Of a stretch of 64,000 nt of DNA, positions 32,447-43,180 are shown piece after piece (the stretch's first letter is position 1; every line of letters starts with the position of its first letter). Origin of the DNA: Eledone cirrhosa. Lineage: Eukaryota. The notes under the pieces are model-generated. The model saw only the letters and a list, made by a program, of their open reading frames with translations, did no database searches and was not told where the DNA came from. The position numbers and the translations under genes were made by a program. Where the stretch lies: positions 352,036,001 to 352,100,000 of the forward strand of contig OZ024743.1 of the NCBI GenBank assembly GCA_964016885.1. Reading direction: 5' to 3'.

Positions 32447-34319
32447 TACCTGGTTGATCCTGCCAGTAGTCATATGCTTGTCTCAAAGCTTAAGCCATGC
32501 AAGTGTAAGTTCATGCCGTAAACGAATGGTGAAACCGCGAATGGCTCAGAAACCGGACCTAATCCTCGGGACCGTATTCCTCACCGCGAGGAGAGTGGAT
32601 AACTGTGGCAATTCTAGAGCTAATACATGCAACTGAGGCCGCGATCGCAGGTCGCACCCGGGAGTCGGGTTACAAACGCGCTCAGCGTTCCATCGCTGTC
32701 GTCGTTCCGTCTTCCCGCGCGGTCCCAACAGATCGCGTCGACACGGTCGGCCTTTGCATTGGTCGCGGCGCAAATATTAGACTGAGACCGACGACGCGTT
32801 AGATGCCGTCAGCGCCGTTCGCAGTTCGCTGCGTGCCGGTTGCGCGGTGTCGCGCATCAATTCGACTTTGGTGACTCTGGATAACTGTCAGTACGATCGC
32901 ACGGGCTTAGAATCGCTTCTGGCCTTCGCGCGACGGGTCCCCCGCGAGTCCGCCCTATCAACTGTCGACGGCCCGGTAAGTGCCGACCGTGGTGGCAACG
33001 GGTAACGGGGAATCAGGGTTCGATTCCGGAGAGGGAGCATGCGAAACGGCTACCACATCCAAGGAAGGCAGCAGGCGCGCAAATTACCCACTCCCGGCAC
33101 GGGGAGGTAGTGACGAAAAATAACGACGCGGGACTCTGTCGAGGCCCCGCGATCGGAATGAGTACACTTCAAATCCGTTAACGAGGATCGACCGGAGGGC
33201 AAGTCTGGTGCCAGCAGCCGCGGTAATTCCAGCTCCGGTAGCGTATATTAAAATTGTTGCGTTTGAAAAGCTCGTAGTCGGAATTCGGGTCTCGAAAGCG
33301 CGCTGCGTCGTCAGCGCGTTCGGGGCGACGGCGCCGTTGTCGTTCGCGCGCCGCGCGTCGACTTCGGTCGTCCGTTCGCACTCCCGGCCCTATTCGCCGG
33401 TGCGTGCGCGGTCGGGCCGCAGAGCTCTGCGTGCATCGCCGCTCGGCGTCACGGTGCGGACGTCGCGTTTTTACCTTCTTGCCACGCTTCTTGCCGTTCT
33501 TCTTGCCTATTTTCCTTTCCGCGTTCGGGGACGATGCGACGACGGCGCTTTTGCTTTATCGCGGGCGTTTGCCGTTCGCCTCTCGTTTTCGTTGCGGCGC
33601 TCCGGTCAGGGTTTGGAGTGTCGTCTCGCTTGGCTATTCGGTCGGTTCTTACGTCGTCGTGCCGTCACCTCGCCGCGGTCGCGCGTTCACCTCGCGGTTT
33701 TGTTTTTCTCTCCCTGCGCGTTTGCCTTTTTCTTTTCGAAAGGAGAGGTTCGTCGTCGCCAGGGTTGGATACGACGGCGTGATCGGTTTCGTCGTCGCGT
33801 CGTCTCGGCGCGTCGCTTTCCTGCGGCCGCCGTTTTGTCGTCGCGCGCGTCGTTCCGTTTCGCCGCCGATCCGCACGGTTCCTCCGAGGGTGCTCTTTAC
33901 CGAGTGTCCGAGGCGGCCGGTACGTTCACTGTGAAAAAATTAGAGTGCTCAGAGCGAGCCGCACCGGCTTGCATACGAAAAACATGGAATGATGGAAAAT
34001 GGCCTCGTCCGCGCGTCATCCGTCGGTCTCCGTTCACGACGAGGCAATGATCGAAGGGAGCGATCGGGGCCACTCGTATTGCGACGTTAGAGGTGAAATT
34101 CTTGGATCGTCGCAAGACGCACTGCAGCGACGGCGTGTGGCAAGCACGTTTTCCTCGATCAAGAGCGAAAGTCGGAGGTTCGAAGACGATCAGATACCGT
34201 CGTAGTTCCGACCGTAAACGATGCCGACTGGCGCTCCGCCGGCGTTCGCTTCGATGACCCGGCGGGGAGCCTGCGCGGGAAACTATAGTCGGTTCCGGGG
34301 GGAGTATGGTTGCAAAACA

Positions 34320-34365
<46 letters not shown>

Positions 34366-35074
34366 GCGGCTTAATTTGACTCAACACGGGAAAACTCACC
34401 CGGTCCGGACACCGGTAGGATTGACAGATCGATAGCTCTTTCTCGATTCGGTGGGTGGTGGTGCATGGCCGTTCTTAGTTGGTGGAGCGATCCGTCTGGT
34501 TGATTCCGATAACGAACGAGACTCCGGCCTGCTAACTAGCGCGTCGATTAGTGCTTTTCCGGTAGCGTGGCGGCGCCGAAGCCGTCGTCGGTAAGCTGTC
34601 CTGCGTTCGTTTTTTTTCCCTTTTTCTTCGAGCTCGGGCTTCCGTTGCCGTTGCCGTCGTCGTCGCGTCGTCGTCGTCTTCTTCTTTCGCGAGTTCGCTT
34701 GCGGAATGGAGGAATGAAGGCAGCGCTGGCGGAGGCGGCGGTCGGTTTTTCGGGCTCGGGAGGGGGGGACCGGCGCGATCAGCCCCGGCGTCGGCACGTC
34801 GTCGCGTCCGGGCCAGTCGGTTGGCGAACGCAGCGCTTCTTAGAGGGACGGGCGGCAGAAAGCCGCACGAGGCGGAGCGATAACAGGTCTGTGATGCCCT
34901 TAGATGTCCGGAGCCGCACGCGCGCTACACTGGAGGTATCAGCGGGCGCCACTCCCCCGGCCCGAGAGGGTCGGGAAACCTCTGAACCACCTCCCGTGAT
35001 AGGGATCGGGGCCTGGAACCAACCCCGTGAACGAGGAATTCCCGGTAGGCGCGGGTCATCAGCCCGCGTCGATC

Positions 35075-35117
<43 letters not shown>

Positions 35118-35260
35118 CGAACGGTCCGGTGAGGTCCTCGGATCTGGCCGACGAGTTCGCAGGCCGTGCGGCGGCGTTTCGATTCGGCCGTCAGGTCGGT
35201 TCGTTGCCGTCGTCGGTGCGCTCTCTGATGGCCCGGAGAAGACGACCGAACCCGATCGCT

Positions 35261-35318
<58 letters not shown>
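32447..35318 (+). rRNA. 18S rRNA (~2870 nt, strongly expanded variable regions)
   Basis: Starts tacctggttgatcctgccag, contains gtgccagcagccgcggtaattcc and gtacacaccgcccgtc, ends gaacctgcggaaggatcatta. Confidence 0.97.
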
Positions 35319-35849: not shown

Positions 35850-36010
35850 AACCCTGGACGGGGGATCACTCGGCTCGTCCGTCGATGAAGAGCGCGGCTA
35901 TCCGCGTGAACTGATGCGAATTGCAGGACTCAGTGAACATCGACACCTCGAACGCACATTGCGGCCCCGGGATTCCACCGTCCCGGGGCCCCGTCCGGTC
36001 GAGAGGCGGT
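35850..36010 (+). rRNA. 5.8S rRNA
   Basis: ggatcactcggctcg..gtcgatgaagagcgc...gaattgcagga...gaacgcacattgcggc. Ends approximate. Confidence 0.93.
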
Positions 36011-36609
36011 CACGATACAATCGCGATGTCTGCTGTTTCGCCATGCGCCGCCCGCTCACGAGAGTGAGAGATGAAAGAGAGAAACACATCCGCCTTTTGC
36101 GCTGCTGCCGCTGCCCGCCTTAGCGAAGCGCAGTTTCTTTTCTTTTTCTCTTCTCTTTTGCGCCATGGTAACAGCGGGAAGTCGGGAGTCGCAGAAGAAG
36201 CGAGAGTCGTCGCTCGCGGAACGCTCCGTCTCCCGTATTGAAATAATAACTAACACTTTTCGTCGTTATTTTTCTTTATTTCTCGCCGTTCGCTTCGGAG
36301 ATCGTCGCACGGAAAGAGAAAGATTTAGAAGAAGGGAAGACGAGAAGGGTAAAAAGAAACGCAGTAACACAGGCGCGGTCGTTGTTCGTCGGCCGGCGTT
36401 CGCTCTGCGAGTCGCCAAAAACACAAAGCGTTCGTGTCGGCCGACGAGAAACGATTTCGATTCCGCTTCTTTTTTTCCCATTTCTCTCGTCTTTTCCACA
36501 TTCCGCCTTGGCGCCCGCTCTATATCGCCAACCTCTTCTTTATCAATGCCGCCTTCTTCTTACCGTCCTCGTTCTTCGTATTCAGCGTATTCGGCGTATG
36601 CGAATAGCT
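36011..36609 (+). other. ITS2
   Basis: Between 5.8S and 28S. Confidence 0.85.
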
Positions 36610-38101
36610 GCCCTCGACTCGGACGCGACTACCCGCCGAACTTAAGCATATCGCTAAGCGGAGGAAAAGAAACCAACCGGGATTCCCTTAGTAACGGCGA
36701 GTGAACTGGGAGGAGCCCAACGCTGAATCTCGTCGTCCGCAAGCAGGCCGTCGAGAGCTGTGGCGCAAGGGTCGTACACGGTCGTTCGTTTCGCCCGGCT
36801 AGGTTCGGAGTCCCCTCGATCGGGGCTGCCCAAAGCGGATGCCAGGCCCATTCGGAGCCGGCGGCGGTCGACAGTGTCTCTTTCTTCGGCCCGAGAGTCG
36901 GGTTGCTTGGGAACGCAGCCCAAAGCGGGTGGTAAGCTCCATCCAAGGCTAAATACCGGAACGAGTCCGATAGCCGACAAGTACCGCGAGGGAAAGTTGA
37001 AAAGAACTTTGGAGAGAGAGTTCAAGAGACCGTGAAACCGCCCAGGGGTTAAACGGGTAGGACCGTTCACCGTGATCGCGAGGGGACTCAGTCCGCTGCT
37101 GTTTTAAGGCGCCGTCGTCGTCGGCGGCGGTCTCTCGTTTCGACGAGTCGACCGCCGACCGCCTCGCCGGCGTTACGATTCGCAGGGTGCCGGCATCGGA
37201 CGCACTTCCCCTTCGATCCCTCGTCGCGACCCGTTCCCGTCAGGCTGGATGGCGCGCGGTGTCCGCAGGTCGCAGAGCGGCGTCCCGCCTAGAAAACGAA
37301 CCATTCCCGGTTCGCTTTCGAAGCGGGTTTCCGAAAACAGCGCTTCTCTCGACCGGGCCCGTCGCTCGGCGGTGGTTTTCATCGTCCCAGGCACGGCTAA
37401 CAGGCGGGGACGGGACAAACGCGCGTGTTCCTTTATTAGCCGCAGCGCCGTTCGTATATGCTTAGGTTGGTTTTTTTAAATATCCTTTAAAATTTCTGAT
37501 CGGCTTTCGAGAAAGCGGCCGCCTCGTTCGCTCGCCCCGTTTGCTTTTTCTCTTTTGCTCTCTTTGCGGAGCAGGAGGGAGCGGGTCGCTGGGCGGACGA
37601 GGATCGCGAGCCGTCCGCTGCTGCAGGTCTGCGACGAGCATCGGCAACCTACCCGACCCGTCTTGAAACACGGACCGAGGAGTCCCAGTCGGTTGCGAGT
37701 CGTTGGAGCGAAAGAAATCGAATTTAACGAACTCCGACGGCGAAGTGAAAGCGAGAACGTGACGCGTCGTCGACGGCGGCGTTAGAGGCTGGTTTGAATT
37801 GACGGCATGCGGCATGGCCTTCGGGTCGTGTCGCTGTTGTTTTTTTCTTCTTTTTTCCGCGCCGTCGTAGGCGTTTCGAAGCATCGTTCCCGGGTCGGGT
37901 GTGCGCGTCGCGTGGCGGCTTTCGGGCCGTCGGCGCGGCGCGCTCCGACTCAGGTGTAGCAGGCGGCCGGGGACCCGAAAGATGGCGATCCACGCCCGGT
38001 CGGGACGAAGCCAGAGGAAACTCTGGTGGAAGTCCGAAGCGCCTCTGACGTGCAAATCGATCGTCGGAACCGGGTGTAGGGGCGAAAGACCAATCGAGCC
38101 G

Positions 38102-38144
<43 letters not shown>

Positions 38145-40166
38145 CGCCAGCAGCAGACAGAACGACACGCAATTCCGTCCGGTAAAGCGAACGACTGGAG
38201 GCCCCGGGGACGTTGACGGCCTCGATCTACTCTCGAACTCGGAACGGGCGAAACGGGCCGCTCTCTCTCCCGATCGGAGGCGGCCGCCGTCTCGGCGACG
38301 AATGCACGGTGCCAAGTGGGCCACTTTTGGTAAGCAGAACTGGTGATGTGGGATGAACCGAACGTCCGGCTAAGGTGCCCTACGCTTCGCCCATTAGATC
38401 CCCGAAAGGGTGTCGGTCGATATAGACAGCAGGACGGTGGCCACGGAAGTCGGAATCCGCTCAGGAGTGTGTAACAACTTACCTGCCGAATCGACCGGCC
38501 CCGAAAATGGATGGCGCTGGAGCGAGCGACCGATGCCGGACCGGCCAGGCGATAGGCGAAAAAAGGTAACACGACGTAACTTTCTTCGATGCCTGGTCGA
38601 GTAGGAGGGCGCCGCGGCGTGCACGGAAGCCGCGGGCGTGAGCCGGGGTGAAGCCGACCGCGGGTGCAGATCTCGGTGGTAGTAGCAAATATTCGAACGA
38701 GACCTTCGAAGACCGAAGTGGAGAAGGGTTCCGTGCCAACGGCGGTCGAGCACGGGTCAGTCGGTCCTAAGAAGCGGGCGAAAGCTTGTACGAAAGGCGC
38801 CGGATCCGTTGTCGAGAAAGAGGAAAAAAAAAGAAAAACCCCCCCTTTTTTTTTTTGGCTTCTCTGTTTTTGTTACGGCCGGCCTTGCATCGAAAGGGAA
38901 TCGGGTTAATATTCCCGAACCCGTACTCGGAGAGTGCTCGTCCGTCGGTGGAATTTAACGCGTCGTCGCGTCATCGAAGCCGGCGGTCGGGCGAAGCAGC
39001 GGCAACGCAAGCGAGCCCGGAGACGTTGCCGGGAGCCCTGGGAAGAGTTCTCTCTTCTTCGTAAAGGACCGCGTCCGTGGAATCGGCTCGTCCGGAGATA
39101 CGGATATGGTACCTGTAGAGCGCCGCGTCTCGGGCGGCGTCCGGTGCGCTCTCGGCGGCCCTGGAAAATCCGGGTCCGTAACGATTCGCAGCTCTCGAGT
39201 CGGTCCGTACCCACCATCCGCAGCAGGTCTCCAAGGTGTACAGCCTCTCGTCGATAGCGCCAATGTAGGTAAGAGAAGTCGGCAAAATGGATCCGTACCT
39301 TCGGAAGAAGGATTGGCTCCGAGGACCGGGTCGGTCGGGCCGTGTGTGTGTCGGCCTGTCGGCCGTCTTGTTGTTTTTTTCCAAAAACTCGGGATCGGTC
39401 GCGCGGCACGTCTGTACGCGAAGCGGTGAACCGGTACGGGGCTGTAGCGTTGGCGTCGGACTTGACGTTCGAGCGTCGGTCGGGTGGTCGATTTGCGCCC
39501 GTTTCGTTTGCGTTCGTTTCGTTTTTCCTTGCCCTTCTTTCGGTTGGCGGCGAGGAGAGAGAGGAAGAAGGCGGCGGCGGCGGCTGCGGGTTGGTCGCGC
39601 GGAGGCGGACGGGGTTTGTTGAAAGATTACCGCGGAGGAGGGATGAAGGCGTAGCAGTAGACGGGGGGAGAGGCTTGTCGCTCGCAAGGGCGGTTTGTTT
39701 TTTTTTTCGTTTTTCTGCTCGCTTTTGTTTTGTTCTTTCGGTTTTTTTTTCTCTTTCCTTTACTGTTCGTCGCAGTGCCGGCGGCTCGCGCGTCGTCGTC
39801 GTCTTTTTTTCTTCGTTTTCTTCGTTTTTGTCGGTCGGAAACAAAAACGGGGGGCTTGGAGAGGCGCTAGCTTGGCGTTGGCGAGCGGCGTTTCGGTCGG
39901 TTGCTTTTTGCGACGTTCGATGCGTAGTGGGCGCGAACAACACGGCTCCACGCCCGGGACACCGTGGAGCGACACGGTTTCGGGCTCGTTGGCGCGTCGG
40001 TTAGCTTCCTTTCTTTCTTGTTCGCGAGGAGGAGGGCGGTTGCCGAGACGCGCGGCAGGCGTTCGGCCGGCGGCGAACGGTCAACTCGAAACTGGTACGG
40101 ACCGGGGGAATCCGACTGTCTAATTAAAACAGAGCATCGCGTAGCCGGCCGAGCCGCATAGACGCG

Positions 40167-40198
<32 letters not shown>

Positions 40199-40214
40199 AG
40201 TGAAGAAATTCAAC

Positions 40215-40244
<30 letters not shown>

Positions 40245-40253
<9 letters not shown>

Positions 40254-40466
40254 GTCGGCGCTACCCTTGACGTGGGAAGAGAGCTTAAATCCGTGGTTAG
40301 AGCTGTACGAGTGAGTCAACTTGACGCGTACCTTTGGAAGTTTGACTCCTTTCGGAGGTTGGCGCCCTCTTCGAGGGGTCGGTTCCGGGGTGCGGGTTCG
40401 GGTTGGCTCGGCAGGTTTTACCATACTCGGTTGGTCTGCCACATTAAGGATGAACTAATTGGCGCC
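40245..40466 (+). ncRNA. Predicted HDV-like self-cleaving ribozyme spanning the 28S/insert junction
   Basis: P1 ctctctt/aagagag, P2 ggcgcta/tggcgcc, P3 ccc/ggg, L3 ttgacgt, long P4, J4/2 aCTAA. Pairing done manually. Confidence 0.6.
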
Positions 40467-41411
40467 TAAATTATGATTGTAATAATTATATAAAAATCAT
40501 ATATCCGTACGGTAGCTGGGGGCCGTTTTAAAACCAGTAACCGAGGGGTCGGGATGGGCCCCTTAGGTTTACTAACTGCAGCGGGCCGCTGTGGTGGCTC
40601 CATGATCATTACAGCGAACGTGATGGGATGTGGAGTCGCCGTGGTGGCTTGCTGTGGTACTTAACCACCCTCGAGGGCTGACAGGGAGCCGGGATACGCC
40701 CTCTGGATTAGAGCCGGCTCAAACCTTTTTTTTTTTTTTTTTTTTTGTCCTTGTTTTTTTTTGTGTGGGCGCGGAAGTGCCTGGAAACTCTCTTCCTAGT
40801 TTTTTTTTTTTATTAACTCGGTGAGCGGTCGGATATAATATCCGAGAAGGAAAAGTAAGACGTCTCCGCCGTTCCGCTAGTCTGGTGGTTCGCCTTGGGA
40901 AAGCGATAGAACCACCTTATCCCCCCGTTGCAGGGTTACGCGTTGCTTAAAGGAAAGTGCTTTTTTTTATTATTAACAGTTTCGTTAATAATATTTTAGG
41001 AATAGGAAGGGAGTGATGAAATGGCTTCTGGAGCGCCCCACAACTTTTTTTTTTTTTTTTTATAGAGTACAATGTACGGCCAGGGAGTTTGGAGCCTCCC
41101 TGTGCGGGATTCCGGCAACAGGATCTCCGCGCGGGGTTCGGTTCCGGTTGCTTACTTGGTGCGTACAACCAAGTAAGCAACCGGGAGGGCTTAGTGTCTC
41201 GCATGGCTCGCTCGCTGAGGTGGCTCCCAGCCAGCCCTCGCGGGGTCCATGGCTTGGCCTGCTCTCTTGGCGTGACCAACCAAATTTGACAGGGCACGCC
41301 GTTCATGCCATAGTTTGCTTGATGACGTTGGCCCGTGGGACCACCCACTTTAAAAAAAAGGGAAAGGCGGCTTATACTTTGCAAAAAGTATAAGTTAATA
41401 GCCAGCTAAAA
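40254..41411 (+). mobile_element. Non-coding insertion at the R2 target site of 28S (candidate non-autonomous R2, SIDE-like)
   Basis: Left flank gtaactatgactctctt, right flank tagccaaatgcctcgtcatc. Canonical AAGG is missing at the 5' junction. Ends in aaaa. No RT ORF. Confidence 0.82.
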
Positions 41412-41451
<40 letters not shown>

Positions 41452-41486
41452 CGGATCAACGAGATTCCCACTGTCCCTATCTACTG

Positions 41487-41521
<35 letters not shown>

Positions 41522-41528
41522 CGGATCG

Positions 41529-41568
<40 letters not shown>

Positions 41569-42138
41569 TTTTGTGAGGGCACACGGTAGGCGTAGCATAG
41601 GCGGGAGCAATCTTGCGTCTCTCGGCTGGCGGCAGCGTCGTTTGCGGGTCGCTTGCGGCTTTGCGGCGGCGTTCGCCGTCTGTCGGGTACCGTGCGCGTT
41701 TGCGTCGATGAAAAACCGCCACTTCCGTAGTTTCTTCGCTCACTCGATTGAGAAGGGACGGGGCCGTCGCCGAGCGGTGGTTCATTTATCTGGTGCGAAG
41801 CGTGCGGTGCATGTCGCGCGCGCACACGTTGTGCGCCGACGCAGCCGATGCGCGACCCTTAGTCGAGAACAGTGTCGGTCGGGGAGTTTGACTGGGGCGG
41901 TACGTCTGTCAAAGGGTAACGCAGGTGTCCCAAGGCGAGCTCAGCGTGGACGGAAACCACACGTTGAGCAAAAGGGCAAAAGCTCGCTCGATCTCGATTT
42001 TCAGTACGAATACGGACCGCGAAAGCGTGGCCCATCGATCCTTTCCGAATAGCGGCGAGCTATGCGTCCGCCGAGAGGTGTCAGAAAAGTTACCACAGGA
42101 TAACTGGCTTGTGGCGGCCAAGCGTTCGCAGCGACGTC

Positions 42139-42176
<38 letters not shown>

Positions 42177-43180
42177 CGAAGCAGAATTCGCAAAGCGTTG
42201 GATTGTTCACCCACTAACAGGGAACGTGAGCTGGGTTTAGACTGTCGTGAGACAGGTTAGTTTTATCCTACCGATGCATTGCGTGTAGGCGGCGGCGGTG
42301 GCGGCTGCAGCCACCTTCTCGAAGGCGGCTGCGGTCGGCGTCGCCGCCGGCAACGTCAACTCGGCTACGGCTATCCCGTCCAGTACGAGAGGAACCGCGG
42401 GATCAGAGCAACGGTTTGCGCGCTCGCTCGATAGAGCGGTGGTGCCAGGCTGCCTCTGAGCGATAACGGCTGAACGCCTCTAAGCCGGAACCGTAGCCGG
42501 ACCCGAGTTGTTTTTCGAAAGCGTCTCAACCTTCTTAAGGCGCATGCCTTAGTTTGGCGATTGCCGTCCGTTCGGCGAAGTCGCTTCCCTTTTCGGGGTG
42601 CGCGTCGTCGTCGGCGGCAGCGTCAGCGGAATTGCCATTCTGTGACGATTACGACGATTCGTCGTCGTTGTCGTCCGTTCGATTTGTCGAAAGAGATCGA
42701 GACGAAAAGGATCGCTTGTATACGACTCGACTTGCCGTTCGGAGTGACGTGCTTAGTAGAGCAGCTACCACACTGCGATCTATTGAGTCTCTTCTCACGA
42801 ACGACACGATCCGCCCACCGAGGCGGCAGACACCAAAAAAAAAAAAAGAAATTTGAAAAGCGGCTAAGGAAGGAAGGAAGGAAGGAACGAACGAACGAGA
42901 GATAGCAGCAGCAGCAGCAGCAGCTAGCGGGTTGGAGCAATGACTCGGTTTTCTTTCGACGGGTTAGCGTAGCAACAATGACGACGACGACATACAAACA
43001 AGTCCGCTCCTTAGCCGCCGCCAATTGTTAGGTTCGTTCTTTATTACACTTCCACCGCTGCTACTGCAAACCACCAACCACTTTCCGCGCGCCAACTTTT
43101 ACGACGATTTCGCTCGCTCGCTCGCCGCTCGTTTGCCAGGTTGCGCCAACGACCCTCAAGGTCGATTAGCATCGAAAATA

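Follow-up and report, generated by a model that had tools for sequence, protein, structure and literature searches.

The window analyzed here, a 64,000-nucleotide stretch of the Eledone cirrhosa assembly, contains one rDNA unit, in which Rfam places the 18S gene at 32447-35318, the 5.8S gene at 35850-36008 and the 28S gene at 36609-42814 (RF02543). The 18S is 2872 nt long, and the rDNA repeat unit seen at 2500-46500 measures 39-40 kb; its long spacer is AT-rich and rich in microsatellites, whereas that of the C12 units is a ~710-bp tandem repeat. The 28S gene, on the plus strand, is split in two: its upstream part (36609-40253) ends in ...GACTCTCTT, an insert of 1158 bp occupies 40254-41411, and its downstream part (41412-42814) resumes with TAGCCAAATG. 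In agreement with an earlier sequence-only reading, the insert lies exactly at the R2 site, with an exact 3′ junction and with the AAGG of the empty site missing on the 5′ side. The same genome has an empty R2 site with AAGG at C12:25175775, inside a full rDNA unit and 6.7 kb from an assembly gap. The longest stop-to-stop frames of the insert are 152 aa (minus strand) and 133 aa (plus strand), and coding capacity for a reverse transcriptase or endonuclease is absent, tblastn showing only a 14-residue antisense endonuclease remnant. The same reading had likened its GC hairpins and T runs in style to the rRNA expansions. The insert folds strongly (40468-41411, z = -11.8 relative to shuffles, of which 0/20 folded equally well); its sole match to parts of the rDNA is one 38-nt T-rich stretch, and the T runs are positioned where the R2 family described below also carries them.

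Some genome matches to the insert have its two ends separated by 3-4 kb of sequence that includes R2-type frames; we call this family R2A. The R2A proteins contain an RVT_1 domain and match proteins named R2 in Kalotermes, Bombyx and Lasius; the protein search returned no close relative, the best match being at 40%. A profile of 14 SIDE copies, as we call members of the insert's family, aligned to R2A at nt 2-371 (E = 6e-51), in the proximal 3′ UTR (E = 1e-39) and at the terminus (last ~150 nt, E = 9e-37), and to a second family, R2B, in the ribozyme only, leaving the SIDE 3′ end unmatched. The SIDE corresponds to R2A nt ~2-371 joined to the R2A 3′ UTR, with ~3.2 kb of ORF dropped. The breakpoint of this deletion carries a CTCA microhomology (40718-40721, plus strand) that is present on both R2A sides and is followed by a T tract, and it falls at the same place in 14/14 aligned copies. 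At the level of sequence, these comparisons confirm that the 1158-bp insert is an internally deleted derivative (SIDE) of the co-resident R2A, with which it shares its 5′ and 3′ ends. Broken R2 copies are common in the genome, but it is extremely improbable that the insert is a 5′-truncated or simply decayed R2 copy, given that its full 5′ end is kept, the 3′ end of the ORF is missing and one breakpoint recurs in 14/14 copies. An R2A copy at C10:26.69 Mb (L031) has lost ~630 nt that span the endonuclease, and the 3′ UTR spot where this deletion ends almost coincides with that of the SIDE; this common deletion end suggests a template-jump hot spot.

The whole non-autonomous element (R2 SIDE; 40254-41411, plus strand) can be divided into a series of parts, all on the plus strand unless noted. 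The element portion of a predicted HDV-like ribozyme (40254-40466) is followed by a decayed R2A ORF start of ~60 codons (40468-40721, homologous to R2A nt ~185-371), which has an ATG at 40473 with a stop after six codons and now forms long hairpins, with four both-side changes among 11 copies. The earlier description of the insert as ORF-less stands in that no long ORF starts with ATG, but it had overlooked this relic. The Bombyx R2 protein reportedly binds a structured 5′ region (PMC6765202, seen in part), of which the hairpins of 40468-40721 may, by analogy, be the equivalent. Next come a proximal block of the R2A 3′ UTR, about 70% identical (40751-41061), and a structured segment (41062-41197) that has no match in R2A or R2B and occurs only in SIDE copies. 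Within the latter, a long perfect hairpin at 41144-41184 is found only in the subfamily of the window, one of its arms replacing sequence of the other copies. The following segment is a captured, antisense fragment of R2A endonuclease-coding sequence (41198-41271, minus strand; nhmmer E = 2.2e-6), at odds with the claim that no endonuclease remnant can be recognized. This piece of ~75 nt has a local alignment score of 53, compared with a maximum of 34 in 60 shuffles; in 4/4 copies tested against the C11 element the scores were 53-75 and the shuffle maxima 34-39, and in copy C3b tblastn recovered 11/14 residues. It may be a template-jump relic. The element ends in a terminal 3′ UTR module common with R2A (41275-41411, 75-84% identical), which is likely a recognition signal for the R2 protein and has a covarying hairpin at 41366-41403 and no poly(A). 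What had been taken for a short A tail is the variable four-base end of this module, AAAA in the window and AACA, AACC, ACCA, ACAA, ATCA or ATCG in related copies.

A descriptor of the HDV double pseudoknot has a single match in the 64-kb window, at the 5′ end of the insert, with the 5′ strand of P1 starting at 40247 in the 28S, P2 at 40257, P3 at 40264, P1′ at 40277, the J4/2 C at 40455 and the end of P2′ at 40466; shuffling gave a match in 1/300 region shuffles and 0/10 window shuffles. In the predicted structure, the 28S bases -11 to -5 (CTCTCTT, 40247-40253, plus strand), assigned from the descriptor scan and pair counts, form the P1 5′ strand, and the predicted cleavage falls directly before 40247. 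P2 pairs 40257-40263 with 40460-40466, and P3 pairs 40264-40266 with 40274-40276 around L3 (40267-40273). P1′ spans 40277-40283, a single P1.1 pair joins G40269 to C40284, an extended P4 covers 40289-40451, and J4/2 (40452-40459) holds the candidate catalytic C40455. Across 19 SIDE and R2A copies, the ribozyme pairing is kept in 94.6% of 776 cells (slid controls, 34-51%) and 6/41 pairs, including pairs of P2 and P4, have changed on both sides, counts that are inflated by kinship and refer to a structure drawn from the window copy. The fold also exists in R2B, where P2 differs, and the core is intact in all young SIDE subfamilies. We thus predict that the 5′ end of the insert forms a complete HDV-like double pseudoknot with seven 28S bases as P1. 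At E <= 10, the insert matched neither a ribozyme nor an intron family in Rfam, probably because the fold is masked by the long P4 and by P1 being supplied from the 28S, and minimum free energy folding is incapable of showing a pseudoknot. An alternative core centered by eye on 40361-40378 was discarded, being deleted or changed in several copies.

The design of this ribozyme is such that P1 opens with a C-G pair and P1.1 consists of one G-C pair plus U-U. The canonical HDV ribozyme P1 starts with G-U, and our literature searches found no paper testing a C-start HDV-like design. A 9-bp P1 starting with G-U at -13 is less favored, as it requires an A-C mismatch and as its P1.1 bases are, by eye, not kept in one published Octopus element, in the part of that record displayed. 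R2B and metagenome matches retain the 7-bp C-start form: a pattern scan of metagenome contigs gave two matches, and both (2/2) are complete C-start folds in which P1 5′, P2 and J4/2 were outside the pattern, one contig (L088) having four copies with a covarying C-start P1. These four folds (L088:607-672, 1093-1161, 1482-1548 and 1889-1954) lie within 2.4 kb, each before a short ORF, and the fold of the other contig (L087:5981-6061) lies ~250 nt upstream of a ROOL RNA, near tRNAs; both contigs have phage-like ORFs and show the same flipped P1.1, and their folds are uncalled by Rfam. On the model, cleavage at -11 is our best estimate; -13 and -9 are kept as alternatives in view of one junction whose duplication begins at -13 (L027) and of three off-target copies carrying only five 28S bases.

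A search of the genome with the insert returned 73 matches, and the SIDE-specific segment occurs at 18 places, 16 of them in a 28S context and two elsewhere, in a (CA)n repeat at C7:22.1 Mb and in a serial R2 array at C18:15.06 Mb. The 14 full-length copies are 81-100% alike in ungapped columns and fall into several subfamilies. Exact upstream target sites number 18 in the assembly, and the sequence that comes next is a SIDE at 13, R2A at 3 and R2B at 1, the remaining site being empty; this occupancy is not the true ratio, the rDNA arrays of the assembly being collapsed. Because AAGG is absent at 16/16 SIDE or R2A junctions among these sites, the loss of the four bases is better explained by a junction that is fixed and RNA-templated than by damage done at each event. 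We also considered an intron-like (group I-like) insert that all 28S genes would carry and remove by splicing. The presence of an insertion after 17/18 exact upstream target sites would fit such an intron, but with AAGG lost its excision would not restore the rRNA, the insert ends in A and not G, Rfam found no intron family, an empty full unit exists and both insert ends are R2-derived, which leaves this reading with a negligible probability. A Pol III SINE was rejected as well, as the head of the element is the R2 ribozyme and the Rfam search matched no tRNA-, 7SL- or 5S-derived head.

The 5′ junctions vary among close SIDE copies through duplications of upstream 28S (C2:251, C25a/b, C12a). 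One copy (C2:114) has its 5′ truncation at position 539 and has lost ~1.5 kb of the 28S upstream, and the full copy in the (CA)n repeat (C7:22) has five 28S bases before it and none after. Some SIDE copies also share serial arrays with R2A and R2B elements. An rDNA tree was built from 19 units, omitting 3/22 (C12a, rearranged; C10, no match; C3:2.8, too short); in it the 13 SIDE-bearing units interleave with the six others, carrying R2A, R2B or no insert, and a single clade of SIDE-bearing units was rejected (p-AU = 3e-45, at least four changes); recombination of rDNA units could also break up such a clade. Taken together, the varied junctions, the truncated copy, the (CA)n copy and the scatter in the rDNA tree point to movement of the family by retrotransposition in trans. 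With an R2A parent sharing both ends, an HDV-like fold, multiple copies and TPRT-type junctions, the proposal of a non-autonomous, SIDE-like R2 parasite is borne out, and the outcomes that had been named as speaking against it were not encountered, the element being multi-copy, no decayed full ORF and not unrelated DNA.

Several further loci in the genome were noted. A ~32-kb serial array at C18:15.044-15.076 Mb (L036-L039) comprises R2A, R2B and one SIDE on a single 28S target. A ~165-nt ribozyme-only fragment lies outside rDNA at C12:38.41 Mb (L026:1490-1688, minus strand), between direct repeats of 15 bp that resemble a target-site duplication. At C6:50.985 Mb (L054:6402-7986), a ~70-bp piece of 28S starting at the R2 site forms a tandem array, and an old rDNA unit at C1:80.95 Mb (L052:1679-1693) has an R2 site in which 13 foreign bases replace five, like the scar of an aborted insertion.

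The window copy belongs to a set of three C4 rDNA units that lie ~40 kb apart, are 99.8-100% identical and have identical junctions; no further rDNA or gap was found in the 10-20 kb beyond them. They differ by 1.4-1.7% from the C12/C25 rDNA type, which includes the empty unit, and the window SIDE differs by 7.5% from the C12b subfamily. Because of this identity and of the divergence from both the C12/C25 type and the C12b SIDE, we consider the window a stray, older, triplicated rDNA unit, the triplication having occurred at the DNA level with no need for retrotransposition. In read run X1, which may be the sample that was assembled and whose reads were compared with the insert only, 17/17 high-depth substitutions (depth 126-402; selected by us, with the indel-rich stretch 40617-40634 omitted) matched C25c/C12b/C12c and 0/17 matched the window; contigs nearly identical to the window had a depth of 35-49, depth not being copy number. 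A younger SIDE subfamily dominates the reads, and that of the window is older. In a RAD run from another study (X21), 7/15 reads span the end of the element into the downstream 28S. Run X4 is of unrecorded kind and cannot be called RNA; the young subfamily is represented there by one contig of 345 nt at depth 126, in which 50 nt are skipped at an 8-nt repeat. The SIDE family, old and successful, is preserved as an ordered series thanks to stray rDNA units, in which successive subfamilies were frozen.

The identity of the C4 units raises the question of whether SIDEs multiplied with the rDNA by recombination, for which there is a precedent in Bacillus rossius, where R2Br-deg, a non-coding form of R2, has multiplied in rDNA in this way (PMC4370867, seen in part). 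The C4 triplet resembles R2Br-deg in this respect, the trees of SIDEs and rDNA units are broadly parallel ladders and no intact R2A was found among the 60 R2 matches in the assembly, all of which would suit such a process. Unlike the insert, however, R2Br-deg as described there is full-length, ribozyme-dead and never 5′-truncated, whereas the ribozyme core is intact in the young SIDEs. Truncated, off-target and junction-variant SIDE copies exist, the (CA)n copy in particular weakening this explanation, and between the window and the C12 type the SIDE has diverged about five times faster than its flanks (7.5% vs 1.4-1.7%) with its helices kept. We therefore regard recombination with the rDNA as very unlikely to account for the family.

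Among 20 SIDE and R2A copies, 7/25 pairs of the terminal 3′ UTR hairpin have changed on both sides. The 14 SIDEs form one clade in the proximal 3′ UTR tree (support 100/100), but the final 137 nt reject such a clade (p-AU = 0.0035, or 0.0056 once the long branch is removed); in the second 3′ UTR tree, row A_C7 was mistakenly cut from the SIDE part of its locus and is to be disregarded. The 3′ end of C2r, an older SIDE copy, reaches 96% similarity to one R2A end, compared with 82% to that of the window. This alignment, although short, suggests that older SIDEs may have exchanged their own 3′ end for that of their helper. Older copies have another peculiarity: one subfamily (L016, L017, L021/L035, L044) contains at element position ~322 an internal copy of ~75-90 nt of 28S, corresponding to the sequence that lies upstream of the R2 site, with common substitutions. 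In L035 a full R2B sits inside this internal target, and the parasite therefore acted as a decoy site.

As to the identity of the helper, none of the 60 R2 matches has an intact R2A ORF, and no two independent R2A copies are more than 98.3% alike (the similarity rows arr0 and arr1 overlap, their 100% being an artefact). R2B, with 54% protein identity to R2A and an unrelated 3′ UTR, provides the sole unbroken full R2 frame among these matches, of 1214 aa, at L049:2763-6404 (C2:166.89 Mb). This copy sits in a current-type rDNA unit that is 99.8% identical to the empty unit, and its protein matches solved R2 proteins with E = 5e-142. It is absent from the six cephalopod rows of Table S2 of PMC13188248. 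Fragments at C9:0.42 Mb (L055) are 66-69% like R2B with another 3′ end and possibly represent a third R2 family.

We thus weighed the possibility that R2A formerly mobilized the SIDE and died out, the young subfamilies being moved by R2B or drifting with the rDNA. Beyond the intact R2B and its recent unit, this possibility draws on the youngest rDNA clade, which has six units with a SIDE, one with R2B only, one empty and none with R2A (0/8), and on the 3′ ends of young SIDEs, which are 70-83% identical to R2A compared with up to 96% in older ones. Against it, the rDNA arrays are collapsed and an intact R2A may be unassembled, 0/8 vs 3/11 are too few to mean much, and the SIDE 3′ end has no match in R2B; we consider it unlikely. 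The specific version in which R2A has gone extinct and R2B now copies the young, rDNA-dominating subfamily seems distinctly unlikely. If true, such copying would show an enzyme regarded as strict using, in nature, the template of another lineage, and would amount to a helper switch by an element whose 3′ end was earlier matched to its helper by exchange and which once carried its own decoy R2 target. It is more likely that a helper R2A is hidden in the collapsed arrays than that the SIDE is orphaned or has switched helper.

Among known elements, the closest counterpart is R2Dwi_SIDE, an ORF-less R2-site insert of Drosophila willistoni (Eickbush and Eickbush 2012, PMC3414825). As far as the accessible part of that paper describes it, R2Dwi_SIDE likewise combines the 5′ ribozyme and 3′ end of a resident R2 with R2-type junction variation, and its identity to its parent is 64% and 81%, compared with about 66-69% and 75-84% for the insert. 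The two differ in length (529 bp vs 1158 bp) and in the origin of ribozyme P1, supplied by the element in R2Dwi_SIDE and by the 28S in the insert. The insert, unlike R2Dwi_SIDE, has no poly(A), and it retains the ORF start in decayed form as well as a piece of the endonuclease region in antisense. Its family is 81-100% alike, whereas R2Dwi_SIDE shows <3% divergence, and includes copies outside rDNA. Cleavage has been demonstrated for R2Dwi_SIDE, whereas the ribozyme of the insert is known as a predicted fold only. By every feature testable here, all of them features of sequence, the insert belongs with the D. willistoni R2 SIDE. The fly survey in the same paper reports one true R2 SIDE in 39 species and calls survival tenuous; our literature searches found no R2 SIDE outside Drosophila.

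Ribozymes that cut upstream in the 28S are documented for autonomous R2s (Eickbush, Burke, Eickbush 2013, PMC3774820, seen in part), in which 28S bases likewise form the P1 5′ strand and 5′ junctions likewise show fixed small 28S deletions and tandem 28S duplications. The text gives cleavage sites from -9 to -36, compared with the predicted -11 (alternative -13) of the insert, and names -13, -25, -27, -28 and -29; its Figure S2 may list -11. The cases in that paper are all autonomous, unlike the insert. For cephalopods, Table S2 of PMC13188248 lists R2-1_ECi and five other R2s. R2-1_ECi, in the cells displayed, reads like the R2A copy L031 (995-aa frame, 3.8 kb), and in three Octopus R2s, judged by eye, a P3 whose outer pair is flipped is followed by the same P1′ plus C. 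The six cephalopod rows include no short element and no R2B, and "non-autonomous" has 0 occurrences in the main text; in the accessible part of Kojima 2016 (PMC5035012), there were no matches for cephalopod or non-autonomous.

Based on these results, we consider it very likely that the insert is a protein-less R2 derivative with predicted ribozyme release, copied by the R2 protein of full-length elements. The SIDE would be co-transcribed with the rRNA by Pol I, and the predicted HDV-like ribozyme would cut 11 nt upstream of the R2 site. The released RNA would begin with seven 28S bases; by annealing to the next target, these would template the AAGG-less junction anew. An R2A-family protein would bind the 3′ module, and TPRT would insert the copy at a new 28S site. 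Inserted copies also multiply passively with their rDNA unit, and the three identical C4 units arose in this way. A SIDE of this kind is a natural minimal R2 template, showing which 5′ and 3′ RNA parts are kept when the protein is unneeded, and as such is relevant to how templates for R2-based gene insertion are designed (PMC13580325, seen in part). The family also offers a testable C-start HDV-like ribozyme, and the two R2 lineages in one genome constitute a test of how strict R2 is in its choice of template.
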